A DNA stretch of 64,000 nucleotides. It comes from Novosphingobium sp. Chol11. Its GTDB lineage: Bacteria > Pseudomonadota > Alphaproteobacteria > Sphingomonadales > Sphingomonadaceae. Where the stretch lies: the NCBI RefSeq assembly GCF_945870625.1, contig NZ_CAMBTS010000001.1, forward strand, positions 28,432 through 92,431, read 5' to 3'. Both the position numbers and the translations under genes were made by a program. Position 1 is the first letter of the stretch. Every line of letters starts with the position of its first letter. Below are positions 8,851 to 61,641 of this stretch, piece after piece. Below the pieces are notes generated by a model. That model saw nothing but the letters and a program-made list of their open reading frames with translations. It was not told the DNA's origin and made no database searches.

Positions 8851-8952
8851 GCCAGCCCTTGGAAATACAACATCTTAGATCGCCCTGTTAACGCCCTTCA
8901 ACCATTAGGGTTGCAAGCACAATACGCTTGTCCAGCATTATGGTTAAAGGGA

Positions 8953-41338: not shown

Positions 41339-42703
41339 TTAGTGCAGGCGCGCACCTTGCCGGCGCAGTTCGGCCTGCACCGCGCCGACATCGATATCGG
41401 CAAAACTGCGCCCCGTCTTCACCGCAATCGCGGCGGCGGTTCCCGCACCTTGGCCCGATACCGCGCAGCACATCATGTTACGCACCGCAGCATGGCTGAC
41501 CTTGTCGCCGCCGATCACGCGGCCCGCCACGATCAGGTTGTCGATGCCTTTGGGCAGCAGCGCGCGGTAGGGCACATGGAAGTAGCGCCCGGTGGTCGGC
41601 AGGATGAGCAAGCCGTAGCCATCGATGAATTCCGGGAAAATGCCGATTGAATCCTCGAAGCGGGCTTGCTGGCGCACGTCGTCGGCGGACATGTTGTAGG
41701 CAGCATCGATCTTGCGGGTGTCGCGGATGCCCAGGGTCATCCCGAAATTGCGGATCTTGGCAGTTTCGCAGCCCGGCATGAAACCGCGCAGGGCCTTGAT
41801 CGCCAACATCGCATCGCGCCGCCCGCGCATCTCGCCCTCGGTCAGCGCGGCGGGATCGGTGCCATCCAGCGTGAAGTGCACCAGATTGAGATACGTGAGA
41901 TCGCCTTGATCCGAAACCGTGCCCCAAGTGCCGGCGATGGTCGCCAGGTTGCGCGGCAACAGCCCGGCATCGAGCGCCTGCTGAAATGGCTTGCGCAGGA
42001 ACGGGGAGAACAGCGCGTCCTCCTTGCCATCGGTGGTGATGTCCCATTCGCCATTGCCCGCCCAATCGCCATACGTCTGCGGATCGGCTTTGACCGCTTC
42101 GATAAAGCGCGGCTTGTTCACCCCGCTCATCGAGAACATCACCGAGACCGACATCATTTCGTCCACCGGATGTTTGAATGTCGGCGCGCCGCCGCGAAAC
42201 GCGAGGTCGGCGTCGCCGGTCGCATCGACGATCCGTTTGGCCAGAATTGCCTCGCGGCCCGCCTTGCTCTCCACGATCACTCCCCGCATCACGGTGCCTT
42301 CCATGATCGGGGCAACGACCAAGCGGTGGAGCATGGGGATCACGCCCGCTTCCTCGACCAGCACATCGGCCACATATTTGAAGGCTTCGGCATCGAGCGA
42401 ATGGCTGATCGATTGCGGTTCGGGCATGGCGGCGTCCATCGCGATGGCGCGATCCTCGAATTCGCGGCCGATGCCTTCGCTATCGATGGTGGCAGGGTGG
42501 CGATACCATGCAAAGCCCTCCACGCCGACTTGCGTGATGTTGCCGCCAAAGCAGCCATAGCGTTCGACCAGCGTGGTTTTGACGCCCGCGCGGGCGCTGG
42601 CCAGCGCAGCGGCGAGGCCGCCGGGGCCAGAGCCGACCACCAGCACGTCGGTTTCATGGATCACGTCGATCCGGCGGGCGGGTTCTTCGATGCTGTGGCT
42701 CAT
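41339..42703 (-). CDS. FAD-dependent oxidoreductase (FAD_oxidored/GidA-like family)
   Basis: DVLVVGSGPGG.AAA.A.AR.G, VDATGDADLA, G.RDTR.I, VPYRAL.P, NL.VAGR, GQGAG.AAA motifs. Confidence 0.85.
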   Translation of the reverse strand: MSHSIEEPARRIDVIHETDVLVVGSGPGGLAAALASARAGVKTTLVERYGCFGGNITQVGVEGFAWYRHPATIDSEGIGREFEDRAIAMDAAMPEPQSISHSLDAEAFKYVADVLVEEAGVIPMLHRLVVAPIMEGTVMRGVIVESKAGREAILAKRIVDATGDADLAFRGGAPTFKHPVDEMMSVSVMFSMSGVNKPRFIEAVKADPQTYGDWAGNGEWDITTDGKEDALFSPFLRKPFQQALDAGLLPRNLATIAGTWGTVSDQGDLTYLNLVHFTLDGTDPAALTEGEMRGRRDAMLAIKALRGFMPGCETAKIRNFGMTLGIRDTRKIDAAYNMSADDVRQQARFEDSIGIFPEFIDGYGLLILPTTGRYFHVPYRALLPKGIDNLIVAGRVIGGDKVSHAAVRNMMCCAVSGQGAGTAAAIAVKTGRSFADIDVGAVQAELRRQGARLH

Positions 42704-42795
42704 GCCGCCTCTTAGACCGTGCCTTAGCATTTTTGAATAAGCGGATCGCAGTTTTGAGCACGACAGCGCCCATGCCGCTTTGCTAGTGCTGCTGC

Positions 42796-45156
42796 ATGAG
42801 CAAAACCATTGTCGAAGCCGCCGTTTCGGCCGAACGCACCGAACTTGTCACGACGCTAGAGGCGATCGAGCAGCGGCTGCGCTGGCTTTCCTCGTGGACC
42901 ATCCACAATGCCAACCATTTGCGCGAAAGCCGCGACGGCTTGAAAGTTGGCGGGCATCAGGCCTCGTGCGCGTCGATCACCACGATCATGGCGGTGCTCT
43001 ATTTCCATGCCCTGCGCGCCTCTGACAAGGTTGCGGTGAAGCCGCACGCCGGGCCGGTGCTGCATGCGATACATTACCTGATGGGCGGACAAAGCCGCGA
43101 GCAGCTTGAGGCGTTTCGCGCGCTAGGCGGGGCGCAGTCTTATCCCTCGCGCACCAAAGATAGCATTCCGGTCGATTTTTCGACTGGGTCGGTTGGCCTT
43201 GGTGTGGCCATAACCGCGTTTGCCAGCCTGGTGCAGGACTATCTTGTGGCGCATGGCCAGCTGGCGCAAGCCGATACCGGGCGGATGATCGCGCTGATGG
43301 GCGATGCCGAGCTTGATGAGGGCAACATCTACGAGTGCCTGATCGAGGGCTACAAGCACGATATCCGCAATTGCTGGTGGATCGTCGACTACAATCGTCA
43401 ATCGCTGGACAGCACAACGGCCGACCGCATGTTTCGCCGCTTTGACGACATCTTCGAAACCTGCGGCTGGCGGGTGATCACGCTCAAGCACGGCAAGATG
43501 CAGCGGGCGGCCTTTTCCCGGGCTGGCGGGCCGGCAATCGAGCGCTGGATCGACGATTGCCCCAATGCCGAATACGCCGCGCTCACGTATCAGGGCGGCG
43601 CCGCCTGGCGCGAACGGATGAACGCAGATCTCGCCGGAGATAAAGCGGCGCTGGCGCTGATTGCCAGCTTCGATGACGAGGCGCTCTCGGCGCTCATGCT
43701 CAATCTGGGCGGGCACTGCGTAGAAACGCTGCTCGATGCGTTCGCGGCGGCAGCGGACGAGCGCCCGACGATGTTCATCGCCTATACGGTCAAGGGCTAT
43801 GGTTTGCCGTTTCAGGGGCACAAGGACAATCATGCCGGGCTGATGAACCCGACCCAGATGGCGGATCTGCGCGCCAGCCTCGGGATCGCGGAGGGCACCG
43901 AGTGGGAGCCACTCGGCGGGCTGGGCAGCAATGTGGCCGCCAAAGCGCGCGACGCCATCGAACGCGCGCGCGCCGCGCTCGGCTCAAGCGCGCGTCCATC
44001 GCCTGCGATTGCGCTGCCTGCGATGCTGCCAGCGCCCGATGGCGCGGTCCAGGCGACGCAGGCCGCGTTTGGTCGGGTGCTGCTTGATCTCGCCAAGTCA
44101 GGTCATCCGTTGGCCGACCGTATCGTGACAACCTCCCCGGATGTTACCGTCTCGACCAACCTTGGCGCGTTCGTGAACCAGCGCGGGCTCTTTCGGCGGC
44201 AGGAATTGAAGGACATCTTCGCAGGCTACAAGATACCCAGTCCGCAGAAATGGGCAGGGCACGAGGCCGGACAGCACATCGAACTGGGGATTGCCGAGAA
44301 CAACTTGTTCCTGATGCTCGCCGCGCTCGGGTTGGCGGGTCCCTTGTTTGGTTCCCGCCTGCTGCCAGTGGGTACCGTCTATGATCCGTTCATCGCGCGC
44401 GGGCTCGATGCGCTGAATTATGCCTGCTATCAAGATGCCCGGTTTCTGTTGGTGGCGACGCCTTCGGGTGTCACGCTGGGGCCCGAGGGCGGCGCACACC
44501 AGTCGATCAATTCGCCGTTGATCGGGATGGGGCAACCGGGGCTGACCTATTTTGAGCCTGCTTATGCCGATGAAGTGGCGCTGCTGATGCACTGGGCGTT
44601 TGGCCATATGCAGGCGGCAGACGGGGGTAGCGTTTATTTGCGCCTATCGACGCGGGCGATTGATCAGATCGAACGCACGGATGATGGCTGGCAGGTCGAT
44701 GCGCTGCGCGGCGGCTATTGGCTACGCAAGCCAGCAAGCGGGACGAAGCTGGCGCTTGTCGCCATCGGCGCGATCATGCCCGAGGCTTTGGCGGCATGGG
44801 AGGCGCTGGCCGGGGATGTGCCCGGGATCGGGCTGCTGGCGGTGACTTCTCCTGATTTGTTGCACCGCGATTGGTCGGCTGCGCAGGCCGCGCGCTGGAC
44901 CGGCGGGATGCGCGCGCCTTGCCACATCGAGCGATTGCTGAGCCCGCTCGCGGACGATGCCGGGCTCGTTACCGTGATCGATGGATCGCCCGCTGCGCTG
45001 TCATGGCTCGGGGGTGTGCGTGGGCAACGGGTCGCTCCGCTGGGCACAGACCGCTTCGGTCAGACCGGCGATCTTCCTGATCTCTATCGGGCTTACCGAC
45101 TGGGTAGCGAGGCGATTGTCGATGGCGCAGCCGAAATCATTCTCGGAGCGCGATGA
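42796..45156 (+). CDS. Homodimeric ThDP enzyme, AceE (pyruvate dehydrogenase E1)/transketolase-like
   Basis: KVGGHQAS.AS, QSYPS, STGSVGLG, GDAELDEGN (ThDP-binding), YTVKG, IAENN, EGGAHQS, G.D.FGQ.G motifs. Confidence 0.85.
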   Translation: MSKTIVEAAVSAERTELVTTLEAIEQRLRWLSSWTIHNANHLRESRDGLKVGGHQASCASITTIMAVLYFHALRASDKVAVKPHAGPVLHAIHYLMGGQSREQLEAFRALGGAQSYPSRTKDSIPVDFSTGSVGLGVAITAFASLVQDYLVAHGQLAQADTGRMIALMGDAELDEGNIYECLIEGYKHDIRNCWWIVDYNRQSLDSTTADRMFRRFDDIFETCGWRVITLKHGKMQRAAFSRAGGPAIERWIDDCPNAEYAALTYQGGAAWRERMNADLAGDKAALALIASFDDEALSALMLNLGGHCVETLLDAFAAAADERPTMFIAYTVKGYGLPFQGHKDNHAGLMNPTQMADLRASLGIAEGTEWEPLGGLGSNVAAKARDAIERARAALGSSARPSPAIALPAMLPAPDGAVQATQAAFGRVLLDLAKSGHPLADRIVTTSPDVTVSTNLGAFVNQRGLFRRQELKDIFAGYKIPSPQKWAGHEAGQHIELGIAENNLFLMLAALGLAGPLFGSRLLPVGTVYDPFIARGLDALNYACYQDARFLLVATPSGVTLGPEGGAHQSINSPLIGMGQPGLTYFEPAYADEVALLMHWAFGHMQAADGGSVYLRLSTRAIDQIERTDDGWQVDALRGGYWLRKPASGTKLALVAIGAIMPEALAAWEALAGDVPGIGLLAVTSPDLLHRDWSAAQAARWTGGMRAPCHIERLLSPLADDAGLVTVIDGSPAALSWLGGVRGQRVAPLGTDRFGQTGDLPDLYRAYRLGSEAIVDGAAEIILGAR

Positions 45157-46975: not shown

Positions 46976-47905
46976 ATGGCCGATCCTGGGCTGCCGACGT
47001 TTGATCAGTTGCGCATCTTTCTGGCGATCGTCGATACTGGCAGCTTTGCGGCTGCGGGGCGCAGGCTCAATCGCGCGGTCTCGGTGATCAGCTACGGGAT
47101 CGCCAATCTTGAAACGCAGCTCGGCCTTGCGCTGTTTGACCGGGAAGGCACACGCCGGCCCCAGCTGACCGAGGCCGGACGCGCGTTGCTGGCCGAGGCG
47201 CGCGGCATCGCGCAGGGTTTTGACGGGCTGCGCGCCAAGGCCAAGGGCCTGCTGGGCGGGCTTGAAGCGGAAGTGGGCTTGGCGGTGGACGTGATGTTTC
47301 CTTCCGCCCGCGCGGCCAAAGTGCTGCGCCTGTTTGCCGCCGAGTTTCCGACAGTGCAGCTGCGCCTGCATGTCGAGGCGCTGGGCGCGGTGGCGGCCAT
47401 GGTGATAGATCAGGCGGCGGTGATCGGGATTTCCGGGCCGTTTGTGACGGGGGTTGCCGATCTGGATAGCTGCCTCGCGGGCTCGACAGTGCTGGTGCCG
47501 GTGGCTTCGCCCGATCATCCCTTGGGAAGCATGACGCAAATCGCGCCCGGGGCAGGGCGCGATTATACGCAGCTGGTGCTTTCGGACCGTTCAAGCTTTA
47601 CCAAGGGCCAGGATTTTGCGGTGATCAGCGCGAAGACATGGCGGCTGGCGGACCTAGGCGCAAAGCATGCACTGCTCAAAGAAGGAATCGGTTGGGGCAA
47701 TATGCCGCTGCCAATGGTGGTCGATGATCTGGCTGCGGGCCGATTGGTGCGCCTCGCGATGCCTGATTTTACGGGCGGGATATTCCGGTTTGCCGGGATT
47801 TGGCGGCGGGACACGCCGCCGGGGCCAGCAGCGCGGTGGCTGCTCGATCAGTTTACCGCGCTTGGTTTGAGTGATGGCAATGGCGATCACTTGGCCGATG
47901 TTTAG
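46976..47905 (+). CDS. LysR family regulator, divergent from pirin
   Basis: DQLRIFLAIVDTGSFAAAGR.L.RA.S.ISY.I.NLE.QLG..LFDR HTH; GIGWG.MP motif. Confidence 0.93.
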   Translation: MADPGLPTFDQLRIFLAIVDTGSFAAAGRRLNRAVSVISYGIANLETQLGLALFDREGTRRPQLTEAGRALLAEARGIAQGFDGLRAKAKGLLGGLEAEVGLAVDVMFPSARAAKVLRLFAAEFPTVQLRLHVEALGAVAAMVIDQAAVIGISGPFVTGVADLDSCLAGSTVLVPVASPDHPLGSMTQIAPGAGRDYTQLVLSDRSSFTKGQDFAVISAKTWRLADLGAKHALLKEGIGWGNMPLPMVVDDLAAGRLVRLAMPDFTGGIFRFAGIWRRDTPPGPAARWLLDQFTALGLSDGNGDHLADV

Positions 47906-47914
47906 GCAGATGGG

Positions 47915-48769
47915 CTAAGCCAGCGTTGCTGACGCGCTCATCAACTGGCGGCCATCGCCGGCAAAGGCCGCGAGGGCCAGCTCTTCTCCCTCGCGGCGCA
48001 GCGCAAGGTGCATAGGTTCGCCGCACATCCCGGGCGAAACGGCGCGGAAGGAGAAGCTGGCCAGGGCATTCTCCCCATGTTCGCGCCGGGCGAGATCGAG
48101 CAACAGGGTGGCGATCAATGGTCCATGCACGACCAGCGCACGGTAGCCTTCGACATTGCGGGCATAGGGCGCGTCATAGTGGATCCGGTGGCTGTTGAAA
48201 GTAAGCGCCGAGTAGCGGAACAACAGCGCCTCTGCGGGCACGAGCGCGCGCGTGTGGTCCCACCCAGCGGGATCGAACGCCCCGTCTCCCGGCGGCGGCG
48301 GAACTGGCGCTGCGCCCACAGGCGATGCCTCGCGGTAGACCAGTGATTGCACCTCGCGCACCGCCAGATTGCCATCGGCCAGCGTCTCGTGTGCCACTTC
48401 CACAAACACCAGCGCGCCCGAGGCCCCCGACTTGGCGGCGACCGAGGCCACCTTCGATACGCGTTCGATCCGGGCAGCGGGCGGGATTAGGCTGATAAAT
48501 TCCAGTTTGCTGGCCGCCCACATGCGGCGGGGCAGCGGGATGGGCGGGAGGAAGCTCGCCGGGCTGTCGTCGCGGCGCGGGTGGCCATCTTCGCCGAGTG
48601 CGGCCGTGGGTGCATCAGGCACGCACAGGCACCAGTGCAGCCCTTGCGGAACTTCATTTCCGATGGGCGTCGAGCGATCAAGTGCGGCGCACCAGCGCAT
48701 GATCAGGCCCGGCGTAAGTTCATCCTGCCGCCGCTCTTCGCGCCCGATCCACCCATCCCAGTCGCCCAT
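47915..48769 (-). CDS. Double hot-dog hydratase, mesaconyl-C4-CoA hydratase / itaconyl-CoA hydratase (Meh/Ich) family
   Basis: W..WIGR, DGHP, F.PP.PLPRRMWA, K.G.SG.L.FV.V, LLFRYSALTFNSHRIHYD.PYA..VEGY..LVVHGPL motifs; ATG overlaps the upstream TGA. Confidence 0.85.
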   Translation of the reverse strand: MGDWDGWIGREERRQDELTPGLIMRWCAALDRSTPIGNEVPQGLHWCLCVPDAPTAALGEDGHPRRDDSPASFLPPIPLPRRMWAASKLEFISLIPPAARIERVSKVASVAAKSGASGALVFVEVAHETLADGNLAVREVQSLVYREASPVGAAPVPPPPGDGAFDPAGWDHTRALVPAEALLFRYSALTFNSHRIHYDAPYARNVEGYRALVVHGPLIATLLLDLARREHGENALASFSFRAVSPGMCGEPMHLALRREGEELALAAFAGDGRQLMSASATLA

Positions 48770-50358
48770 CAGTTTCGCCCATCCAATAGTCCGCGCGCGA
48801 TCACTTGTGCCTGAATTTCCGCAGCGCCTTCGAAGATATTGAGGATGCGGGCATCGCACAGCACGCGGCTGATCTCGTATTCCAGCGCATAGCCGTTGCC
48901 GCCATGAATTTGCATTGCGGCATCGGCCATGCTCCATGCGCAGCGCGCGGCATGGAGCTTGGCCATGCCGGCCTCGATATCGCAACGCTTGCCCTGATCT
49001 TTGGCGCGCGCAGCGGCATATGTCAGCTCGCGCGCCATCACGATATCGACGAGGCCCATCGCCAGCTTGTCTGCCACGCGCGGGAACGCGATGATAGATT
49101 TGCCGAATTGCTTGCGGGCAAGCGCATAGTTCAGCCCCAGTTCGAGCGCGCGGCGCGCCACACCGACGGCGCGGGCAGCAGTCTGGATCCGCGCGCCTTC
49201 GAAAGTGCGCATCAGCTGTTTGAAACCCTGGCCTTCCTCGCCGCCAAGCAAGGCATCGGCTGGCGCGCAAAGGCCGTCGAATTGCAGCGCATATTCGCGC
49301 ATGCCGCGATAGCCCAGCACCTCGATCTCGCTGCCGCTCATGCCCTCGGCAGGGAAGGGATCGCCTTCCGTTCCGCGCGGCTTTGGCACCAGCAGCATCG
49401 ACAGGCCGGTATAGCCCCTTTGATCCGGCAGAGTGCGCGCCAGCAAGGTCATCATATCAGACCGGGCGGCGTGGGTGATCCAGGTCTTGGCGCCGGTGAT
49501 GTGCCACTCTTCACCACTGCGCCGCGCGCGGGTTTGCAGCGCGCCAAGGTCTGATCCGGTATCGGGTTCGGTGAATACCGCCGTGGGCAGGATTTCGCCG
49601 CTGGCGATGCGCGGCAGCCATTGCGCCCTTTGCGCCTCGGTGCCGCCGAGCGCGATCAGTTCGCCCGCGATTTCGGAGCGGGTGCCGAGTGAGCCTGCGC
49701 CGATCCAGCCGCGCGACAGTTCCTCCGTCACGAGGCACATCACCAGCTTGCCAAGGCCAAGGCCGCCGTATTCCTGCGGGATGCACACCCCGAACGCGCC
49801 TAGCTCTGCCATTGCGGCGATGGTCCCATCGGGGATCAGCGCGTTGGCGAGATGCCAGCCATGAGCATGGGGCAGGATTTCAGCGTCGGTGAACCGGCGG
49901 AATTGGTCGCGGATGGTATCGAGGTCGCTGTCTTGCAGGCTTTCACTGGGCCACTGGCCTTCGCCAAGGAGGCGGGCGAGCTCAGCGCGCAGGGGCGCTT
50001 GGTCGGCGGTCAGCATCTCCCTCGCCGCGTCCTCGAGCGCGCGGGCGGCGTCTGCCAAGCCGAGGTCGGCGGGACGGACCATTTCGCCCGGACCCATGGG
50101 CAAGCCGCCAATTAGTTGGGCGATGATTTCGGCGAAGGCCAGCTTGGCCACCAGTTCGTCGGCTGGATTGCCCCCTGCGTTTCCATCGGCCCATTCCAGC
50201 GTCGCCTCCAGCGCGGCAACGCTAGTGGCGATCCATGCAAAGCCATGCGCGGCACGCTGCTCATCGTTGATGCTGCGCGTTTCAAGCCGCCGGGCGAGCG
50301 CTGCTTTGGCGCTGTCGGTGTAGCCCTGCGCAGCCGCCAAAGCGTGCCGGAGCATCAC
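48769..50358 (-). CDS. mcd: Acyl-CoA dehydrogenase, (2S)-methylsuccinyl-CoA dehydrogenase-like
   Basis: 529 aa with the ~150-aa N-terminal extension (EQ.AAHG.AW.AT); GSLGTRSEIA, EIEVLGYRGM.EY, FKQLM.TFE.ARIQTAARA, FPRV..KL, IFEGAAEIQ signatures. Confidence 0.78.
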   Translation of the reverse strand: MMLRHALAAAQGYTDSAKAALARRLETRSINDEQRAAHGFAWIATSVAALEATLEWADGNAGGNPADELVAKLAFAEIIAQLIGGLPMGPGEMVRPADLGLADAARALEDAAREMLTADQAPLRAELARLLGEGQWPSESLQDSDLDTIRDQFRRFTDAEILPHAHGWHLANALIPDGTIAAMAELGAFGVCIPQEYGGLGLGKLVMCLVTEELSRGWIGAGSLGTRSEIAGELIALGGTEAQRAQWLPRIASGEILPTAVFTEPDTGSDLGALQTRARRSGEEWHITGAKTWITHAARSDMMTLLARTLPDQRGYTGLSMLLVPKPRGTEGDPFPAEGMSGSEIEVLGYRGMREYALQFDGLCAPADALLGGEEGQGFKQLMRTFEGARIQTAARAVGVARRALELGLNYALARKQFGKSIIAFPRVADKLAMGLVDIVMARELTYAAARAKDQGKRCDIEAGMAKLHAARCAWSMADAAMQIHGGNGYALEYEISRVLCDARILNIFEGAAEIQAQVIARGLLDGRN

Positions 50359-51578
50359 GCGCGTTCAAACACCGCCGCGATGCCTTGGCCGCCGCCGATA
50401 CACATGGTTTCAAGGCCGAAGCGGCCCTGACGGCGGACCAGTTCGCGGGTCAGGTTGGCGAGAATGCGGCCCCCGGTGGCGCCGATCGGGTGGCCGAGCG
50501 AAATCCCCGAACCGTTGACGTTGAGGATGTCGTGGCGGCTGTCGTCCTCGCTCCAGCCCCAACCTCTGAGCACGGCGAGCACTTGCGGGGCGAAGGCTTC
50601 GTTCAATTCGACCAGATCGATATCGCTCCACGAGAGGCCGCTGCGCGCGAACAGGCGCTCCACCGCCGGAACCGGGCCGATGCCCATTCGGCTTGGCTCG
50701 CAGCCAGCGGCAGCGGCGGAGTGGAACCAGGCGATGGGTTCGAGGCCCAATTCGTCAAGCTTGTCCTCGGCCACGACAAGACAGGCGGCGGCGGCATCGT
50801 TCTGCTGGCTGGCGTTGCCCGCAGTCACTACCCCGCCTTCGAGTGCGCGCAGCTTGCCAAGGCTTTCGGCGGTGGCATCGGCGCGATATCCTTCGTCATG
50901 CGCGAAGATGAGTGGATCGCCCTTTTTCTGAGGGACGGGGACCGGCACCAGCTCGTCGTCAAAAAGGTGCGCTGCCCATGCGGCGGTGGCGCGCTGGTGC
51001 GAGCGGGCGGCATAAGCGTCGGCGGCTTGGCGGGTGATGCCATAATCCTTGGCGAGATTTTCCGCGGTTTCGATCATGCCCGAGATGAACCCGAAGCGCG
51101 CTTCCGGCTGCGACATCACGCGCCCGCGCGTCAGCCGGTCGTGCAGCACGAGGCTTCCGGCGCGGACACCTTTTCGGATGTCGGTGGTGTAATGCTCGAC
51201 ATTCGACATCGATTCTGCGCCGCCCGCAACCACGACATCGGACATGCCCGACTGGACCATCATGGCGGCGTTGATCACCGCCTGCAGGCCCGAGCCGCAG
51301 CGCCGATCGAGCTGATAGCCAGGCACTTCGAGGGGCAGGCCCGCGGCGAGCCAAGACCAGTGGCCGATGGCCGGGGCTTCGCCGTTGCCATAGCCTTGTG
51401 CGAAGACGACATCATCGACGCGCGCAGGATCGATCCCGGTTCGCTCCATCAATGCCTTCAGGATGACCGCGCCCAGATCGGCGGCAGTCAATGGAGCGAG
51501 CGCTCCGCCGAACTTGCCGACGGCGGTGCGGATCGGTGCAACAATGGCGGCGCGGCGCAGGGAGGGGCGGGTGGTCAT
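50355..51578 (-). CDS. Acetyl-CoA C-acyltransferase (thiolase)
   Basis: RT.VGKFGG, DRRCGSG (Cys), NEAF, GHPIGATG (His), MCIGGGQG (Cys) motifs. Confidence 0.95.
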   Translation of the reverse strand: MTTRPSLRRAAIVAPIRTAVGKFGGALAPLTAADLGAVILKALMERTGIDPARVDDVVFAQGYGNGEAPAIGHWSWLAAGLPLEVPGYQLDRRCGSGLQAVINAAMMVQSGMSDVVVAGGAESMSNVEHYTTDIRKGVRAGSLVLHDRLTRGRVMSQPEARFGFISGMIETAENLAKDYGITRQAADAYAARSHQRATAAWAAHLFDDELVPVPVPQKKGDPLIFAHDEGYRADATAESLGKLRALEGGVVTAGNASQQNDAAAACLVVAEDKLDELGLEPIAWFHSAAAAGCEPSRMGIGPVPAVERLFARSGLSWSDIDLVELNEAFAPQVLAVLRGWGWSEDDSRHDILNVNGSGISLGHPIGATGGRILANLTRELVRRQGRFGLETMCIGGGQGIAAVFERA

Positions 51579-52783
51579 GCTGGAGTTCCTACTATGCCGG
51601 TATCGATCAAACGGGCAATTTCGCCTGACGAAAGCTGCAGATGATCAGCGAGCACGCGTTCGGAGTGCTCGCCGATGAGCGGGGCGGGGGCAGGGGGCTG
51701 CCGTTCAAGCTGCGGGATGGTGGCGAAGGGGCCAGCGGCAGGATAGGCAAAGCCGCTGGGGTTATTGTCGGTCACGGCAAACATCGGATTTTCCCCGACG
51801 AGGCGGGGATCGGCGATGGCTTCGGGCATGGTTTTGTAAGGACCGTGGGTGACGCCTGCGGCATCGAGCCGGGCGGCGAGCTGCGCATGGGTGAGCGCCG
51901 CTGCGCTGCGTTCGATCAGGCGGTAGATGGCTTCGCGGTGGGTGAAGCGCACGCCGTCGTCGCCGGTGAACGAGATACCCAGCGCGGCCTCGATGCTCGC
52001 CAGCGCTTCGCCAAGATCGAGCGCGCGGGCAAGGCCTTGCCACTGGCGTTCGTTGATTGCGACGATCATCACGCGCACGCCGTCATGCGTCACAAAATCG
52101 CGGCCGATGGTCCCGAATACACCGTTGCCCAGCCGCTCACGGTCTTTGCCAGTATAAAGTACCTCAGCCACGCGGCCGAGATTGGCGGCGGAGCCCATGG
52201 CAATGTCGGTGAGGGGGAGGCGCACTTCGCCGCCAAGCCCGGTATGCTCGCGCCGGCGGACGGCAGAAACCATGGCGAACGCTGCATAAGCACCAGTCAG
52301 CAAGTCCCACGCCGGAAGCACATGGTTGACCGGCGCATTGCTTTCCAGTGGCCCGGTGAGCGCGGGGAAACCGACGGCAGCGTTTGCGGTATAATCGAGC
52401 GCAATCGCGCCGTCTGGCCAGCCCATTACGCGCACGGTGATCAGATCGGCGCGGCCTGCCGCCAGTCTTTCGTGCGCCATGAAACCGCCGACCGGCAGAT
52501 TGGTAATCAGGTTGCCGACGCTTTGGACCAGCCGGGTGAGCAATTCGCGCCCTTCGGGCCGGGTAAAGTCGAGCGCCAGGCTCCGCTTGGCGCGATTGAG
52601 GTTTTCCCACGAGAGGGAGTCGCCGCGCGCCGTTACCGGCCAGCGCCGGAAATCCTGCCCGCCGCCGATCTGATCGACCCGGACGACGTCCGCCCCGAAC
52701 TGTGCGCAATAAAGCCCCGCAGTGGGCGAGGCAACGAAGGACGAGACCTCGATCACCGAGAGCCCGGAGAGGATATCGTACAT
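51575..52783 (-). CDS. mct: Family III CoA-transferase, mesaconyl-CoA C1-C4 CoA-transferase (isomerase)-like
   Basis: FVA.P......AQ.GADV.R.D.IGGG.D..RWPVT, DYT.N...G.P..TGP, VNHVLPAWD..TG, R...GN...G..GRDF.T.DG.RVM, NPMF motifs, which match the Mct subfamily as I recall it. Confidence 0.78.
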   Translation of the reverse strand: MYDILSGLSVIEVSSFVASPTAGLYCAQFGADVVRVDQIGGGQDFRRWPVTARGDSLSWENLNRAKRSLALDFTRPEGRELLTRLVQSVGNLITNLPVGGFMAHERLAAGRADLITVRVMGWPDGAIALDYTANAAVGFPALTGPLESNAPVNHVLPAWDLLTGAYAAFAMVSAVRRREHTGLGGEVRLPLTDIAMGSAANLGRVAEVLYTGKDRERLGNGVFGTIGRDFVTHDGVRVMIVAINERQWQGLARALDLGEALASIEAALGISFTGDDGVRFTHREAIYRLIERSAAALTHAQLAARLDAAGVTHGPYKTMPEAIADPRLVGENPMFAVTDNNPSGFAYPAAGPFATIPQLERQPPAPAPLIGEHSERVLADHLQLSSGEIARLIDTGIVGTPA

Positions 52784-52809
52784 TCAGCGCGCTCCGGCCG
52801 GATGCGGGT

Positions 52810-54003
52810 TCACGCTTGCGCCCCGGATGCGAAATCGCGCAGCATTTGCTTGGCAATAACCAGCTGCATGATCTGCGTCGTGCCCTCATAGATGCGGTAA
52901 ATACGGCTATCGCGAAAGAAGCGCTCCGCCGCGTATTCAGCCAGATAGCCCGCGCCGCCATGGATCTGCACGCACCGATCGGCCACCCGGCCGCACATTT
53001 CGGAGGCAAACATTTTGAACGAGGCGGCTTCCATCAGGATTTTCTCGCCCCGATCCGCCTTGGCGATGGCATCGCGCATCATGCATTCCGAAGCATATAT
53101 TTCGGCCTGACTGTCCGCCAGCATGGCCTGGATAAGCTGAAACTGCGCGATCGGTTCGCCGAAGGCCTTGCGCTCGGTGGCGTAGCGGGTTGCGGTATCG
53201 AGAATGCGCCGCGCATACGCGGTAGCCGCCGCGCCGACCGACAGTCGTCCGTTGTCGAGGCTTTGCATGGCGATGGCAAAGCCTTTGCCTTCCTCGCCGC
53301 CGAGCAGCGCATCACCGGGGACATGCACATCGTCCATGATGATGTCGCCGATGTGGCTGCCCGATTGGCCCATCTTCTTGTCCGATTTGCCGCGCGTGAT
53401 CCCCGGCGTATCGAGCGGCACGAGAAAGGCCGAAACATGCGCGTTCTTGGCCAGCGTTTCTTTGGACGTGCGGGCCATAATCAGCGCCATTTTGGCAAAA
53501 GGCGCGTTGGTGATGTAGCGCTTGGTGCCATTGAGCACATAGCCGTTGCCCGAGCGCACCGCCGTGGTCGCCATAGCCGCCGAATCCGAGCCAGAGCCCG
53601 GCTCGGTGAGGCCGAACGAGGCGATTTCGCCAGCGGCAAGGCGCGGCAGCCATTCGTCCTTCTGCTCGGCCGTTCCGGCATTCTTGATCGCCGAGCAGAC
53701 CATGCCGAGGTTGATCGAGATGGTCGAGCGGAAGGCCGGCATGGCATAGCTTACGGTGTGGATCGAGGTGATGTACTGGCTGATGTTCATGCCTGCGCCG
53801 CCGTACTCCTCGGGCATGGTCAACCCGAAAAGACCCATCTGGCGCATCTCATCGAGCAGATCGGCGGGGATGGCATTGGCGGCGATCACGTCATCTTCGG
53901 CCGGGATCAGCCGCTCGCGCACATAGTGTGTCAACTGGCCGTGAAACTGTTCGAACGTATCGGGGTCCATTCCGGGATTCTGGCCGGCATTTGGCATGCT
54001 CAT
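52810..54003 (-). CDS. Acyl-CoA dehydrogenase
   Basis: GL..PEEYGG.G, FGLTEP.SGSD, LNGTKRYITN, KMG..G, LD.GR, R.AFG..I..FQ, RIYEGTTQI motifs; GAGGA SD before ATG 54003. Confidence 0.93.
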   Translation of the reverse strand: MSMPNAGQNPGMDPDTFEQFHGQLTHYVRERLIPAEDDVIAANAIPADLLDEMRQMGLFGLTMPEEYGGAGMNISQYITSIHTVSYAMPAFRSTISINLGMVCSAIKNAGTAEQKDEWLPRLAAGEIASFGLTEPGSGSDSAAMATTAVRSGNGYVLNGTKRYITNAPFAKMALIMARTSKETLAKNAHVSAFLVPLDTPGITRGKSDKKMGQSGSHIGDIIMDDVHVPGDALLGGEEGKGFAIAMQSLDNGRLSVGAAATAYARRILDTATRYATERKAFGEPIAQFQLIQAMLADSQAEIYASECMMRDAIAKADRGEKILMEAASFKMFASEMCGRVADRCVQIHGGAGYLAEYAAERFFRDSRIYRIYEGTTQIMQLVIAKQMLRDFASGAQA

Positions 54004-54013
54004 CAGTTGGTCC

Positions 54014-54931
54014 TCAGATCGGATCATACGGGAAAACATGCGCGGTCACTTCGTCCTCGCGCGCGAACGAAGCGCTGAACGCCGGGATCAGCTCGTCCGC
54101 AATCGACTGCGGTGTCCAGCCTTCGGGATTGACCATCGAGCGGATCGGGCGAGGTTTTGAAAACAGCACGATCTCGTTCTTGCGGACCGCAAAGATCTGG
54201 TTGTTGACCGCTTTGGCGAGATCCGAGGCAAGATAGGCGACCAGCGGCGCGATCTTGTCTGCGCTCATCGATTTGAGCCGCTCGACCCGCTGCTTTTGTG
54301 CGGGCGTTTCTGCAGGGATCGAGGCGGTCATCCGGCTCCATGCAAATGGCGCGATGCAATTGGAGCGCACACCCACGCGCGCCATATCGAGCGCGATCGA
54401 ATGCGATAACGCGACGAGGCCGAGCTTGGCTGTCGAGTAATTGGCCTGCCCGATATTGCCGATGAGGCCGCTGGTCGAGGTGAAGTGAATGAAGCTGCCC
54501 GACTGCTGCTCGCGGAAATATGGAGTGGCTGCCTTCGAGACGTTGAACGCGCCCGTCAGGTTGACGTCGATCACGCTGGTCCAGTCCGCATGGCTCATCT
54601 TGTGCCACATCCCGTCACGCAAGATGCCGGCGTTGTTCACCACCGCATCGATCCGGCCAAACTGGGCGATGGCATCTTCGATGATCGAGGTTGCGCCAAC
54701 CGGATCGGCCACGCTGGCCAGGTTGGCGAAAGCACGGCCGCCGCTGGCCCGAATTTCCGATGCAGTGGTTTCGGCAGGGCCCGAATCGCCGCCGTCGCCG
54801 CTTTGCGCCACGCCCGGATCATTGACGATCACCGCCGCGCCCTCACGCGCGCACAGCAGCGCAACTTCGCGGCCGATCCCGCGCCCGGCGCCGGTCACAG
54901 CGACAACTTTGCCTTCGAGTATTCCCGCCAT
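54014..54931 (-). CDS. SDR, 3-hydroxyacyl-CoA dehydrogenase-like (HSD17B4/Fox2 N-domain type)
   Basis: VTGAGRGIGR, VNDPG, VNNAGILRD, TSTSGL.GN.GQANY..AK (YxxxK), N.IAP.A.SRM motifs; GGAGAG SD. Confidence 0.88.
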   Translation of the reverse strand: MAGILEGKVVAVTGAGRGIGREVALLCAREGAAVIVNDPGVAQSGDGGDSGPAETTASEIRASGGRAFANLASVADPVGATSIIEDAIAQFGRIDAVVNNAGILRDGMWHKMSHADWTSVIDVNLTGAFNVSKAATPYFREQQSGSFIHFTSTSGLIGNIGQANYSTAKLGLVALSHSIALDMARVGVRSNCIAPFAWSRMTASIPAETPAQKQRVERLKSMSADKIAPLVAYLASDLAKAVNNQIFAVRKNEIVLFSKPRPIRSMVNPEGWTPQSIADELIPAFSASFAREDEVTAHVFPYDPI

Positions 54932-54986
54932 GTCCGACTCTCCCAAGCACAGAATGCACTCGCTTACCGGCCCATGCCAGCAATTC

Positions 54987-55002
54987 AACATCCCGGAATG
55001 TT
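54987..55002. promoter_or_regulatory. Near-perfect 16-bp palindrome upstream of the acyl-CoA operon
   Basis: AACATCCC/GGAATGTT (one mismatch), 55 bp upstream of the SDR start, inside an AT-rich patch. Confidence 0.4.
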
Positions 55003-55192
55003 TTTCACTGTTTTGAATAGGCTCCCGCCCAGTACTGGATCGGTCTTCGATCAAGGCCATCGCCCTGCCCGCAGCATGCGCTGGGTGCTGGCAGCAAAGC
55101 CTCGCAATCCGGCTCAAGGCGATCTGACTAAGTGGTTTTCCCGATGGTCGCTATCAGCCGGTCGTAGGCACACGTCGTGCAATAGACACATC

Positions 55193-56476
55193 ATGCTTAA
55201 ACGTGTCCCCACAGATCAGATCAAGCTTGGCATGTTCATCCACAAGCTGGAAGGCAGCTGGTTTCAGCATCCCTTTTGGAAATCGAAGTTTCTCCTGACC
55301 GATGAGGGCATGCTGCAGACTTTGACCAGCAGCGATGTTCCCGCCGTGACGATCGACACCGAGCGCGGGATTGATTTTTTTGAGCAACCGAGTGCGCCCA
55401 GTACGCAACCGGTGGCGCGGGTGTTTGGCGGTGGGCGGCCCAATCTGGTGCGCACCATGCCGCCAGCTAATGGTCGAGTTGCGATTAGCGCCGCAGTCGC
55501 TCAATCTACAACCGTCGCCGAGTTCGGCAAGGCGCGCCAGATCACGCAGCGAGCGGGCAAAGTCGTCAGCCGCGTGTTTTTGAAGGCCCGACTGGGCAAA
55601 GCCTTCGAAGCTTCCGAAATCGAGCCGGTGATCGACGAGATTTATGCCTCGGTCCAGCGCAATCTTTATGCCTTCAATGGTCTCCTGCGGTGCCAGCAGG
55701 ACCGCGATTTCGTTTACCGGCATGCGCTTGCGGTCAGCGCCTTGATGATCTCGCTCGCCCGGCAGATGAAGCTGTCGCCGCTCGATATCCGCGAGGCAGG
55801 CATGGCCGGGCTGATGATGGATATCGGCATTGGCCAATTGCCCGACAAGAGCATCGCCAGCATGGTCAATCTCCGCCAGCTTTCAAGCGAGATGCTCGCC
55901 CAGCATGTCCTGCTCGGTTATGCTTTGCTCAAAGCTTCCGGCGGGGTTCCCAAGCGGGTTCTTGATGTGAGTTTGCAGCACCATGAGCGGCTCGATGGCA
56001 CCGGCTATCCCAATGGCTATGCAGGCAGTGATATCGGCCTTTTCCCTCGGATGGCCGCGATTTGCGACGAATACGATTACCTGGTTTCGTCTGACGGTGA
56101 ACGCATCGGACTTGATCCGGGCGCAGCGATCCGCGCCCTTGGCGAAACCGGCGGCGGCGGGCTCGATCCCGAGATCATGTGCCATTTCATCGAAATGCTG
56201 GGCGTCTATCCGATTGGCGCGTTTGTGAGCTTGCGGTCGGGCCGTCTGGCCATGGTGGTCGATGAAGACCCCCATGATCATGCGTTGCCGATCGTGCGCA
56301 CGTTCTTCTCGAGCGAGAGCGGCAAGCGGATCAAGAGCGAGACAATTGCACTGGCGCACTGTTTCGGCGCGGACGAGATTGTTGGCGTTGCCGAACTGGC
56401 GGGGCTTGATCTGCCCGATCTGGGCGATCTGCGCAAATCCATCCTCGCGGCCTATGCGCGCGAAGCGGGCGGCTGA
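55193..56476 (+). CDS. DUF3391 + HD-GYP domain protein, degenerate HD motif
   Basis: N-terminal LGMFIH.L..SW..HPFW; HHERLDG.GYP.G intact; HD site reads LMMDIGI instead of LLHDIGK. Start is ATG 55193. Confidence 0.88.
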   Translation: MLKRVPTDQIKLGMFIHKLEGSWFQHPFWKSKFLLTDEGMLQTLTSSDVPAVTIDTERGIDFFEQPSAPSTQPVARVFGGGRPNLVRTMPPANGRVAISAAVAQSTTVAEFGKARQITQRAGKVVSRVFLKARLGKAFEASEIEPVIDEIYASVQRNLYAFNGLLRCQQDRDFVYRHALAVSALMISLARQMKLSPLDIREAGMAGLMMDIGIGQLPDKSIASMVNLRQLSSEMLAQHVLLGYALLKASGGVPKRVLDVSLQHHERLDGTGYPNGYAGSDIGLFPRMAAICDEYDYLVSSDGERIGLDPGAAIRALGETGGGGLDPEIMCHFIEMLGVYPIGAFVSLRSGRLAMVVDEDPHDHALPIVRTFFSSESGKRIKSETIALAHCFGADEIVGVAELAGLDLPDLGDLRKSILAAYAREAGG

Positions 56477-60125: not shown

Positions 60126-61637
60126 CTAAACTGCCTCAGCCGGCACGTTCACCCGGACCTCGGCTTTCAAGGCGAGATGGGCGGCCAGAGCTTTGAGATC
60201 GCGCTCTACCCCCTCGTTTACCAGCGCCGCGATGGCGGGCCGCACGCAGAGCAGCAGCAAGCCGCGCTCGGCGGTAAGCGAACTGCCGCTCAAGCCTTCT
60301 AATGTGCAACTGCTAAACCTGCGGCACAGGCGCGTGGCAAGCCCGACGGCATGGGCTTCGCGCAACTGCGCAGGCGAAATGAGCGCGGTAAGTTCGGGCG
60401 ATAAGCCCAGTGATCCGGTGTTCGCGCCCATCGCCGCCGCCAGCGCCACCCGCGCGCGCGCGTCAGCGCCAATCCAGCGCTTGCGCAAGGCCCAGTCGCG
60501 CGCCAGATCGCCGCGCAGATTTGGCTCCACTTTGGTCGAGGCAAGGCAGAGCATGATGGCTGCAAGACGAATGCCATGATCTGTCTGCTCATTCTCAGCC
60601 GCGCAGGCCATCTTTACCGCCGCGCCGATCCAGTCCGCGACCATTCCAGCGGTTGCCGCCGATACGGAATATTCAGCGGCAAAGGCGGTCGCCCCGGCGA
60701 CGAGCGGATCTTGCGCTTGCAGCGCTGGCGGCATGGATTGCCACAAGATGCCCTCGCGCAGACCCCATGATGAGAAAATCAATCGTCCAGGCTGCAAAGT
60801 GCGGATCAAAATCGCCAGCAGAGCCCCAGTATCGGGCAGGCTCGCCAACCGCGCATTGGCCACGCCCACGAGCGGAAGCATTGTATCGGGCTTTTTGCGG
60901 GCAAGGCCTCTGGCGATCTTGAACGCCTCTTCCGGCGCGATCTCGAAGCCATGGGGATCATCGATCGGCCAGTCCGTGGCATGGATGGCATAGCGGGCGA
61001 AAGCACGTAGTGAGCCGCCGACGAGATAGAGCGCAGAGCCGGGCGCCGCTTGCCACGCGGCCTTTTTGACGGCCTTGTTGATGCGTTGGGCAAAGGCGCG
61101 TTCGCCGTTGGCGCGCATCGCGGGCAGGTTTAGCGAACCGAGCGGCATACTGATGCCGTGGCGACAGCTCGGGGCATCGACATCGACCAGTTCGAGGCTT
61201 CCACCGCCAAGATCGCCGACCACGCCGCGCGCGCCGGGGAATGCCCCCATCACCCCGTGTGCGCTGGTGATGGCCTCTTCTTCTCCGCTGAGCAGGCGAG
61301 GCTCCAAGCCCAGATCCTGAACCGCGCGCAGGAATTCGGGGCCATTGCCAGCATCGCGTACGGCCGCTGTTGCCACAACGTCAACCTGGCCGATCCGCTC
61401 AAGCCGCAGTAAAGTGTGATAGCGCGCGAGGCTGGAAAGCGCGGCGGCCATGGCACGCTCGGCAAGCATCCCGGTTTCCGCCACGCCTTTGCCCAGCCGC
61501 GCGGTAATCTTTTCGTTGTGGAGCACTTCGGGCGCGCGGATCGGCCCGCCATAAATGACCAGGCGCACCGTGTTCGATCCGATGTCGATGATCGCCCGGG
61601 TGGGTTCATGGGGCGAGGTACGGTCGAACTTTGCCAT
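60126..61637 (-). CDS. ppx: Ppx/GppA exopolyphosphatase
   Basis: IIDIGSNTVRL, VATAAVRDA.NG, LSGEEEA, DLGGGSLE, S.WGLREG motifs; directly downstream of ppk1. Confidence 0.92.
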   Translation of the reverse strand: MAKFDRTSPHEPTRAIIDIGSNTVRLVIYGGPIRAPEVLHNEKITARLGKGVAETGMLAERAMAAALSSLARYHTLLRLERIGQVDVVATAAVRDAGNGPEFLRAVQDLGLEPRLLSGEEEAITSAHGVMGAFPGARGVVGDLGGGSLELVDVDAPSCRHGISMPLGSLNLPAMRANGERAFAQRINKAVKKAAWQAAPGSALYLVGGSLRAFARYAIHATDWPIDDPHGFEIAPEEAFKIARGLARKKPDTMLPLVGVANARLASLPDTGALLAILIRTLQPGRLIFSSWGLREGILWQSMPPALQAQDPLVAGATAFAAEYSVSAATAGMVADWIGAAVKMACAAENEQTDHGIRLAAIMLCLASTKVEPNLRGDLARDWALRKRWIGADARARVALAAAMGANTGSLGLSPELTALISPAQLREAHAVGLATRLCRRFSSCTLEGLSGSSLTAERGLLLLCVRPAIAALVNEGVERDLKALAAHLALKAEVRVNVPAEAV

Positions 61638-61641
61638 GCGA

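Follow-up and report, generated by a model that had tools for sequence, protein, structure and literature searches.

A sphingomonad operon joining Mcd-, Mct- and Meh/Ich-type homologues to beta-oxidation genes: a putative catabolic route for methyl-branched dicarboxylates

Methylsuccinyl-CoA and mesaconyl-CoA are handled by the enzymes of several described systems. Mcd, the dehydrogenase of (2S)-methylsuccinyl-CoA, is part of the ethylmalonyl-CoA (EMC) pathway of Paracoccus denitrificans and Rhodobacter sphaeroides, and the CoA-transferase Mct and the hydratase Meh belong to the 3-hydroxypropionate bi-cycle of Chloroflexus and Roseiflexus. In the modified 3-oxoadipate (mml) pathway of Pseudomonas reinekei MT1 and Cupriavidus, a thiolase splits 4-methyl-3-oxoadipyl-CoA into methylsuccinyl-CoA and acetyl-CoA. 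The itaconate-methylsuccinate cluster of Pseudomonas and Cupriavidus encodes Ict, Ich, Ccl, the C4-specific Mcd PA0879 and Msi, and its catabolism proceeds via the C4 ester; Gonner et al. (2025, PMC12290011) state that no C1-type Mcd other than the EMC enzyme is known and that, in C. necator, the C1 ester would lead to a dead end. An overview of branched C5-dicarboxylate routes published in 2026 includes no C1 or Mct branch. In the synthetic THETA cycle, the module for methylsuccinate (Ccr, Ecm, Mcd, Mct, Meh, Ccl), presented as new-to-nature, combines enzymes of different organisms by design, and its Mcd-Mct-Meh-Ccl sequence was hard to establish in E. coli (bioRxiv 10.64898/2026.01.16.699985). 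In anaerobic naphthalene degradation, a thiolysis product undergoes an intramolecular CoA shift before it is oxidized by an acyl-CoA dehydrogenase (ACAD), the step of ThnP/ThnO (PMC11659651). Here, we describe a six-gene operon at positions 47915-54931 of a 64,000-nt stretch (the window) of Novosphingobium sp. Chol11 (assembly GCF_945870625.1, contig NZ_CAMBTS010000001.1, positions 28,432 to 92,431) that carries homologues of Mcd, Mct and Meh/Ich together with beta-oxidation genes.

The open reading frame (ORF) map shows six densely packed genes, all on the minus strand. In order, they encode a short-chain dehydrogenase/reductase (SDR; 54014..54931, 305 aa, Pfam adh_short 147 bits), an ACAD in which all three ACAD Pfam domains are present (ACAD409; 52810..54039 for the longest ORF, 409 aa), a family III CoA-transferase from the sphingomonad subclade of the Mct branch (MctL; 51575..52783, 402 aa), a thiolase of degradative type (50355..51578, 407 aa), a homologue of (2S)-methylsuccinyl-C1-CoA dehydrogenase (McdL; 48769..50358, 529 aa) and, as the final gene, an Ich/Meh-type double hot-dog hydratase (IchL; 47915..48772, 285 aa, Pfam FAS1_DH_region 24.7 bits). 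The conservation of N-termini among orthologues places the probable true start of ACAD409 at about 54003 or 53997, and according to the start chosen, the SDR and ACAD409 genes are about 10 nt apart or overlap by 26 nt. A gap of 26 nt separates the ACAD409 and MctL genes, and the MctL/thiolase, thiolase/McdL and McdL/IchL junctions are overlaps of 4 nt each. This map agrees with an earlier prediction made from the letters of the window (the original prediction), which had described six co-oriented genes with gaps of 26 bp or less, or overlaps. A scan of species-representative genomes yielded 80 loci, of which 49 had enough flanking sequence for gene-content counts (L numbers below designate loci, including some of the host genome). 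As the same six genes recur in identical order in Novosphingobium kunmingense, and all six occur together in 8 of these 49 loci, their arrangement is not due to chance.

With slightly better than even confidence, we propose that this operon is a catabolic two-module unit, independent of the EMC pathway, which would convert methyl-branched dicarboxylates into pyruvate and acetyl-CoA. The downstream module is fairly secure, and the upstream substrate conjectural. Among the papers searched, none was found to describe the route in nature, to link mesaconyl to Novosphingobium or Sphingomonas, or to join methylsuccinyl-CoA, mesaconyl-C4-CoA and thiolase. The original prediction had likewise noted that Mcd and Mct/Meh were not known as one catabolic operon. 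The enzyme families are known and their combination appears to be new.

McdL has as its best structural match the Mcd of P. denitrificans (PdMCD; PDB 6ES9, E 1e-184, 618 bits, 59% identity). It possesses the N-terminal extension of Mcds, for which about 170 residues preceding the ACAD core served as the criterion: the ACAD domains begin at residue 146, and residue 22 aligns with PdMCD residue 44. In PdMCD, the C4 carboxylate is bound by Arg252, Arg376 and Arg421, which are positioned by Ser248, Thr418 and Glu380, the C2-methyl pocket is formed by Ala285 and a shifted Phe287, and Phe534-Glu535 is the catalytic pair (PMC5798300). McdL is identical to PdMCD at every one of these positions and at Tyr375, and the specificity residues are also identical in all operon McdL orthologues aligned. 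By family, McdL can be classed as an EMC-type (2S)-methylsuccinyl-CoA dehydrogenase, as foreseen in the original prediction, which had called the 529-aa ACAD Mcd-like. An exact-sequence look-up of McdL returned no matching record. A tree of motif-checked ORFs that included an outgroup was rooted on distant Mcd-like proteins; in it, the Mcds linked to MctL cluster as a single group of 27 rows (SH-aLRT 90; 97-100 at inner nodes), separate from the Mcds of Ccr-positive genomes. McdL belongs to this clade, and its gene has Mct-like, Ich-like and beta-oxidation genes as neighbours, whereas in many EMC genomes mcd adjoins ccr.

The genome from which the window derives, a lake-water metagenome-assembled genome (G000; 3.23 Mb, 179 contigs, 94% complete), was searched for the partners of the EMC pathway. 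The best match to Ccr (TIGR01751) in this assembly, 146 bits vs a cut-off of 378, is the reductase domain of the propionyl-CoA synthase Pcs. No MaoC protein of the size of Mch was found in the genome, the four present being 155-168 aa long. Two genes belong to the acyl-CoA mutase family; one encodes Mcm and the other a large-subunit-only protein. Because the genome lacks Ccr, a Mch-sized hydratase and a plausible Ecm, McdL is probably not part of the EMC pathway. The original prediction had proposed that an absence of Ccr and Ecm would favour a catabolic role, and the search turned out in this direction. The interpretation of the operon as an EMC pathway was rejected for lack of Ccr and a Mch-sized hydratase. 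Searches of the genome for a MmgE/PrpD protein (Msi) and for a Mcl-type lyase were also negative, two CitE-like proteins giving only weak matches to the halophile Mcl model.

The product of the second mutase gene (G000:C7:30042-31607) lacks both a fused B12 domain and a counterpart of Arg207, which we take to be the Mcm residue that binds the substrate carboxylate; this protein may resemble Icm, Hcm or Pcm. With only a generic mutase-domain match, it was judged by inspection unlikely to be Ecm, a call less firm than that on Ccr.

The closest family of MctL is TIGR04253 (2-methylfumaryl-CoA isomerase; 347.4 bits vs 123 bits for the next family), and its top structures are the Mct of Roseiflexus and Chloroflexus (PDB 7XKG, E 2e-99; 8APQ, E 5e-96), with 44% identity to the C. 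aurantiacus enzyme. In Chloroflexus Mct, Asp165 is catalytic, Arg47 and Tyr136 hold the free carboxylate, Leu43 narrows the mouth of the tunnel, a position at which all intramolecular transferases are said to have Leu or Ile, and a kinked adenine is accommodated by Ile74, Arg75, Phe101 and Arg104 (PMC9813914). MctL retains Asp165, Arg47, Tyr136, Asn100 and Asp135. Asp165 and Arg47 occur in all of the 90 homologues aligned, and position 136 is mostly Tyr, with a few Phe or His. MctL thus lies on the same branch as the bi-cycle enzymes and is paired with an Ich/Meh-type hydratase, as in those Mct-Meh pairs of other Proteobacteria that adjoin malyl-CoA-lyase-like genes. In contrast to the bi-cycle, the source of mesaconyl-C1-CoA proposed for the operon is Mcd rather than Mch/Mcl, in a heterotrophic, catabolic setting.

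The sole solved relatives of IchL are the structures 8KHG and 8HUC of the P. aeruginosa itaconyl-CoA hydratase Ich (E 1e-50 over 253 residues, IchL 7-259), an enzyme that also hydrates mesaconyl-C4-CoA (PMC12290011). No other significant relative of IchL was found in the PDB, where hydratase-2 and PhaJ structures went undetected, and no NCBIfam model matched. The Meh/Ich-like assignment made in the original prediction therefore stands.

The lyase whose absence from the window had been noted in the same prediction may be encoded elsewhere, since the host genome contains two CitE-like genes, both on other contigs (C3 and C65), and either product could be the missing citramalyl-CoA lyase. The best candidate is C3:60262-61188, beside a RipB/Ich-like MaoC gene. 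Although no linkage of IchL and CitE exists in the window, it is seen in six relatives: in L126, L128, L137 and L138, a CitE orthologue is flanked by MctL and IchL, in L113 it comes directly after IchL, and in L132 it is part of the cluster. These cluster-linked CitE proteins share 45-50% identity with the host CitE on contig C3.

On contig C3 (L010, G000:C3:60262-61601), the CitE-like gene is co-oriented with the MaoC gene, which encodes 150 aa, and overlaps it slightly. That on contig C65 (L009, G000:C65:8525-12400) adjoins genes for a CaiB-type CoA-transferase and for a HpaB-like/4-hydroxybutyryl-CoA-dehydratase-like protein.

Among the beta-oxidation genes, the SDR finds its best solved relative in the dehydrogenase domain of Candida tropicalis MFE-2 (2ET6, 338 bits), followed by Drosophila MFE-2 and human 17beta-HSD4 (3OML, 181 bits; 1ZBQ/1GZ6, about 170 bits), all of them ahead of FabG. 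It can be regarded as a homologue of MFE-2-type (3R)-hydroxyacyl-CoA dehydrogenases, with a predicted (R) stereospecificity; its orthologue in L013 has 304 aa. The thiolase scores 672 bits against NF004853 (PRK06205), above the cut-off of 551, vs about 350-360 bits against the 3-oxoadipyl-CoA thiolase models, and its best PDB match is a beta-ketothiolase of M. smegmatis (4ZRC/5BYV, 429 bits). Beyond its PRK06205 subfamily, it would be a generic degradative thiolase. The thiolytic step predicted for it is the one known from the mml pathway, but this pathway uses a PcaF-type thiolase rather than one of PRK06205 type, and no gene for a muconolactone isomerase or enol-lactone hydrolase lies near the cluster in the 80 loci. 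The best PDB matches of ACAD409 are short-chain acyl-CoA dehydrogenases (about 270 bits), and the canonical Phe occupies the position of PdMCD residue 285. A role of ACAD409 as a methylsuccinyl-CoA dehydrogenase was rejected, as it possesses none of the three Mcd arginines and its similarity to PA0879 is patchy (99 aa, 127 bits, vs 408 bits for the c6 ACAD described below).

Sphingomonadales supply nearly all of the 80 loci; a few others come from Caulobacteraceae, Microvirga, Methyloligella and Algimonas. Across the 49 loci, the genes at most 8 kb away from MctL were McdL (34 loci), the thiolase (33), ACAD409 (29), IchL (28) and the SDR (20); in addition to the eight complete clusters, eight have all genes except the SDR. 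Since clusters without Mcd, without thiolase or without SDR and ACAD also exist, the cluster is made of modules rather than encoding one obligatory linear pathway. Minimal clusters that lack the beta-oxidation genes consist of MctL-IchL-McdL (L122) or MctL-McdL (L085, L087).

In 21 related loci there is one more ACAD, termed c6, which often replaces McdL directly after the thiolase (L064, L090, L096, L102) or else stands beside McdL. It shows about 60% identity to PA0879 of P. aeruginosa, the characterized (RS)-methylsuccinyl-C4-CoA dehydrogenase (PMC12290011), over 264-269 aa and with 390-408 bits. As the PA0879 gene taken from the supplement of that paper contains frameshifts due to optical character recognition, it was compared as ungapped pieces chained across frames; plain tblastn understated the identity. 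The host genome carries a c6 orthologue (72% identity to the c6 ACAD of L064) followed by a second ACAD gene (G000:C8:52343-54803), and it seems to hold both C1- and C4-type methylsuccinyl-CoA dehydrogenases. The same pair of c6 and second ACAD also follows IchL in the Sphingorhabdus-type clusters L092, L099 and L100.

The co-occurrence of these genes was examined in 401 genomes of the phylum, the MctL clade being defined by at least 49% identity. Of the 54 Mcd-positive genomes, 47 carry Ccr, and mcd often adjoins ccr (for example in G136, G353, G317, G012 and G024); seven are Mcd-positive but Ccr-negative, and six of these have a member of the MctL clade. In each of the 10 genomes with this clade, at least one Mcd of C1 or C4 type is encoded, vs 70 of the 391 others (Fisher p 6e-8, phylogeny ignored), and none of the 10 has Ccr.

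Other Mct-like transferases, with 53-64% identity to Chloroflexus Mct, pair with IchL homologues beside genes resembling those of malyl-CoA lyase and malate-CoA ligase. Because such Mct-like/IchL pairs adjoin malyl-CoA-lyase-like genes, the MctL and IchL families can be read as a Mct/Meh pair. The pairs of L051 (6580-12808), L059 (5578-10922) and L053 (8951-11067) stand beside one or two malyl-CoA-lyase-like genes; that of L059 also lies beside malate-CoA-ligase-like genes, and that of L051 beside a gene for a 649-aa protein resembling family I CoA-transferases. The hosts of pairs of this type are a gammaproteobacterial genus and Ccr-positive alphaproteobacteria. This distribution suggests that partial routes resembling the 3-hydroxypropionate bi-cycle or branches of the EMC pathway may be widespread.

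The family placements of the six proteins, the Mcd active site, the absence of EMC partners and the linkage across species are established by sequence, and the catalytic steps and direction of flux that can be predicted from them are as follows. One module would comprise McdL, MctL and IchL, and the other ACAD409, the MFE-2-type SDR and the thiolase. The latter would be an (R)-type beta-oxidation set that shortens longer methyl-branched dicarboxylyl-CoA: ACAD409 and the SDR would perform the oxidations preceding thiolysis, and the thiolase would cleave the 3-oxoacyl-CoA into methylsuccinyl-CoA and acetyl-CoA, a product proposed for an enzyme whose gene is translationally coupled to those of MctL and McdL. 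By simple chemistry, a 3-methyladipate-type chain oxidized from the unbranched end would give the C1 ester and a 2-methyladipate-type chain the C4 ester; this would account for the joint occurrence of dehydrogenases specific for C1 and for C4 with a C1/C4 transferase. McdL would oxidize (2S)-methylsuccinyl-C1-CoA to mesaconyl-C1-CoA. As no Mch is available, MctL would then move the CoA to the C4 carboxyl, the saturated ester possibly being a substrate too. IchL would hydrate mesaconyl-C4-CoA to (S)-citramalyl-CoA, and a CitE-type lyase encoded elsewhere in the genome would split the latter into pyruvate and acetyl-CoA.

The sequence from methylsuccinyl-C1-CoA via mesaconyl-C1-CoA and then mesaconyl-C4-CoA to citramalyl-CoA appears well supported by inference, and a 4-methyladipyl-CoA-type entry substrate is a conjecture. 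The route of the original prediction thus fared differently in its two halves: the downstream one gains from the Mcd active site, the absence of EMC partners and the linkage to CitE and C4-type Mcd, and no conserved neighbour backs the upstream substrate.

The proposed ending, from mesaconyl-C4-CoA through (S)-citramalyl-CoA to pyruvate and acetyl-CoA, would be shared with the Pseudomonas/Cupriavidus cluster, whose Ich has a homologue in the operon and whose PA0879-type ACAD has counterparts, together with CitE, in related sphingomonad clusters and elsewhere in the host genome. However, the operon is proposed to use the C1 ester by means of an EMC-type Mcd and a Mct-like transferase, has thiolase, SDR and ACAD genes attached and lacks an Ict orthologue, and the genome has no Msi and carries its PA0879-type ACAD on contig C8, outside the operon. 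The order Mcd, Mct, Meh, Ccl and the end products acetyl-CoA and pyruvate are those of the THETA module, but the three operon genes are linked in nature and would be fed by catabolism rather than by Ccr/Ecm. As with ThnP/ThnO, thiolysis would leave the CoA on the 'wrong' carboxyl, and its shift would let an ACAD proceed; ThnP nevertheless belongs to the family I transferases and has no sequence relationship to MctL, and its substrate is alicyclic.

Several observations weigh against this proposal. MctL falls under the equivalog cut-off of TIGR04253 (347.4 vs 725 bits); the Leu "cork" at position 43 is absent, being replaced by Gln in the subclade of the window MctL and by Pro in most sphingomonads; and the adenine pocket Ile74/Arg75/Phe101/Arg104 is changed to Phe/Thr/Leu/Gly. 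Because the Mct cut-off is missed and Leu43 is absent, a strictly intramolecular action of MctL is unproven, and of the Mct-like assignment in the original prediction it is the kinship to Chloroflexus and Roseiflexus Mct, its nearest characterized relatives, that remains firm. Carboxylate-binding arginines sought in ACAD409 by alignment with PdMCD were not found, and no dedicated hydratase for the first turn of beta-oxidation is among the operon genes. No oxygenase, lactonase, ligase or transporter recurs near the cluster in the 80 loci that could hint at the substrate; the recurring neighbours are regulators (IclR, LysR), more ACADs and thiolases, a SCPx-thiolase/DUF35/MaoC set and a FadB-type dehydrogenase. 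A search of sequencing runs for a stretch of the window returned only DNA contigs of lake-water metagenomes and no RNA runs. Finally, clusters of ACAD409, MctL, thiolase and IchL occur in genomes without a C1-type Mcd, where they would suit plain beta-oxidation equally; three such genomes carry a C4-type Mcd elsewhere. These clusters belong to the evidence for a rather unlikely alternative, in which the operon would by itself carry out the (R)-specific beta-oxidation of some acid, with Mcd as a late add-on for a side product. MctL would act as an intermolecular activator, for example from succinyl-CoA, ACAD409 as the dehydrogenase and IchL as an (R)-hydratase, the SDR would oxidize the (3R)-hydroxyacyl-CoA and the thiolase would cleave. 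The five non-Mcd genes indeed account for all four activities of beta-oxidation as well as for activation. The SDR is of MFE-2 type, IchL is the only hot-dog hydratase of the operon, no CoA ligase is present, and the changes at position 43 and in the adenine pocket of MctL fit such a function. Nevertheless, it would explain neither the retention by MctL of the C4-dicarboxylate ligands Arg47 and Tyr136, nor the CitE gene between MctL and IchL in four loci that lack an adjacent same-strand thiolase/ACAD set, nor the methylsuccinyl-CoA dehydrogenase (C1 or C4) in every MctL-clade genome. It would also leave mesaconyl-C1-CoA without a fate in a Mch-less genome, and the PDB search detected no similarity of IchL to hydratase-2 or PhaJ structures.

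The minimal clusters devoid of beta-oxidation genes (L122, L085, L087) would be accounted for if the system salvaged free environmental C5-dicarboxylates (methylsuccinate, mesaconate, itaconate) as a sphingomonad analogue of the Pseudomonas/Cupriavidus cluster, an explanation to which we give a low probability. MctL would then not only activate the acid but also bring its C1 and C4 esters into equilibrium, in the way of IaaL on phenylsuccinate, a family III transferase that acts inter- and intramolecularly (PMC11659651), and a separate function, only loosely attached, would fall to thiolase, SDR and ACAD409. The PA0879-type C4 dehydrogenase and CitE of related clusters and of the host genome would fit, and methylsuccinate is regarded as environmentally relevant (PMC12290011). 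Yet an unrelated function is hard to square with a thiolase gene that is coupled to those of MctL and McdL by 4-nt overlaps and adjoins MctL in 33 of the 49 loci; moreover, no dicarboxylate transporter is conserved nearby in the 80 loci and the genome has no Msi. An assimilatory role, either as a Ccr-independent variant of the EMC pathway or as a partial 3-hydroxypropionate bi-cycle tied to the propionyl-CoA synthase of the genome, would fit in that the EMC pathway, too, contains a thiolase, an (R)-type reductase and a hot-dog dehydratase along with Mcd, and could invoke the full-length Pcs (2934 bits to 6EQO) as well as other Proteobacteria in which Mct-Meh pairs adjoin malyl-CoA-lyase-like genes. 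It is nonetheless highly improbable, as the genome was found to contain no Ccr, Mch-sized hydratase or Mcl-type lyase, the second mutase has no carboxylate-binding Arg, the operon is not linked to pcs, and the operon-type Mcds form a clade apart from those of the EMC pathway.

If the catabolic two-module reading is correct, the operon would supply the C1 route that is missing from the 2026 overview, as a C1 complement to the C4 route of Pseudomonas, and would be a natural counterpart of the synthetic THETA module. It would give Mcd a catabolic role, and Mct and Meh a role beyond autotrophy. A broader extension, which we consider doubtful, is that sphingomonads possess a general terminal route for methyl-branched dicarboxylates. 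Starting at the unbranched end, (R)-type beta-oxidation would halt at methylsuccinyl-C1-CoA or -C4-CoA according to the position of the methyl group. The diverged, promiscuous Mct would then shuttle the CoA intramolecularly on saturated as well as unsaturated esters and might also pass it on intermolecularly, so that the next molecule of substrate is primed; both Mcds would converge on mesaconyl-C4-CoA, which would yield citramalyl-CoA and finally pyruvate and acetyl-CoA. The source acids could be breakdown products of terpenoids or methyl-alicyclic compounds in lakes and soils. Should this hold, nature would already use the Mcd-Mct-Meh-Ccl sequence. Naturally co-evolved and co-expressed enzymes could serve as parts for this module in synthetic biology and, since the six genes have cultured carriers (candidates being Novosphingobium kunmingense, N. 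percolationis c1, N. marinum DSM 29043, Sphingobium chungbukense DJ77 and Sphingopyxis sp. H050), the origin of methylsuccinyl-CoA in oligotrophic heterotrophs can be asked.

The flanks of the operon are unrelated to it: they comprise the convergent gene of a LysR-type regulator, a HD-GYP protein, ppx/ppk, a MFS transporter, a FAD oxidoreductase and a transketolase-like protein. The LysR gene (46976..47905, plus strand; Pfam HTH_1 and LysR_substrate) ends 9 nt from the end of the IchL gene. Its orthologues occupy the same position in the two nearest syntenic relatives, L104 and L114, with 71-75% identity, and a divergent IclR-type gene takes its place in other lineages; the LysR-type protein is a possible regulator of the operon. 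The intergenic stretch 54932..55171, bordered by the SDR gene and the divergent gene of the HD-GYP protein, is presumed, by position only, to hold the promoter. When the operon was scanned for promoters and terminators, no signal exceeded the shuffled background, and a sigma-70 consensus scan of 54932..55171 was likewise empty. Further out in the window lie the HD-GYP (DUF3391) gene itself (55172-56476), ppx and ppk (60126-63843) and, with the MFS transporter gene, a divergent pair encoding a FAD-dependent oxidoreductase and a 786-aa transketolase/E1-like protein (41339-45156). Outside the window, these flanking genes are linked to the cluster only in L104 and L114. The window sequence itself was found only in lake-water metagenomes, and its relatives point to Sphingomonadales.

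Some minor observations concern the host genome and single loci. A frame of 1842 codons at G000:C35:9651-15179, which contains L001 and L007, matches the propionyl-CoA synthase 6EQO over its full length (2934 bits); the metagenome-assembled genome would thus encode the trifunctional Pcs of the 3-hydroxypropionate bi-cycle, yet no Ccr, Mch or Mcl-type lyase. On a Novosphingobium-like chromosome (L012), an IS110-family transposase gene (8575-9525) lies directly upstream of MctL, at the site of SDR and ACAD409, and the remaining cluster consists of the four genes MctL, thiolase, Mcd and IchL. In L047 (1546-10724) and L055 (9562-18206), MctL and a Mcd-type ACAD (McdL in L047, a distant protein of 45% identity in L055) are accompanied by a SDR, a MFE-2-like double hot-dog hydratase, a DUF35/HMG-CoA-synthase-like protein, a SCPx-type thiolase and a crotonase, with IchL in L047; this gene set is of a kind known for the cleavage of side-chain or branched acyl-CoA.

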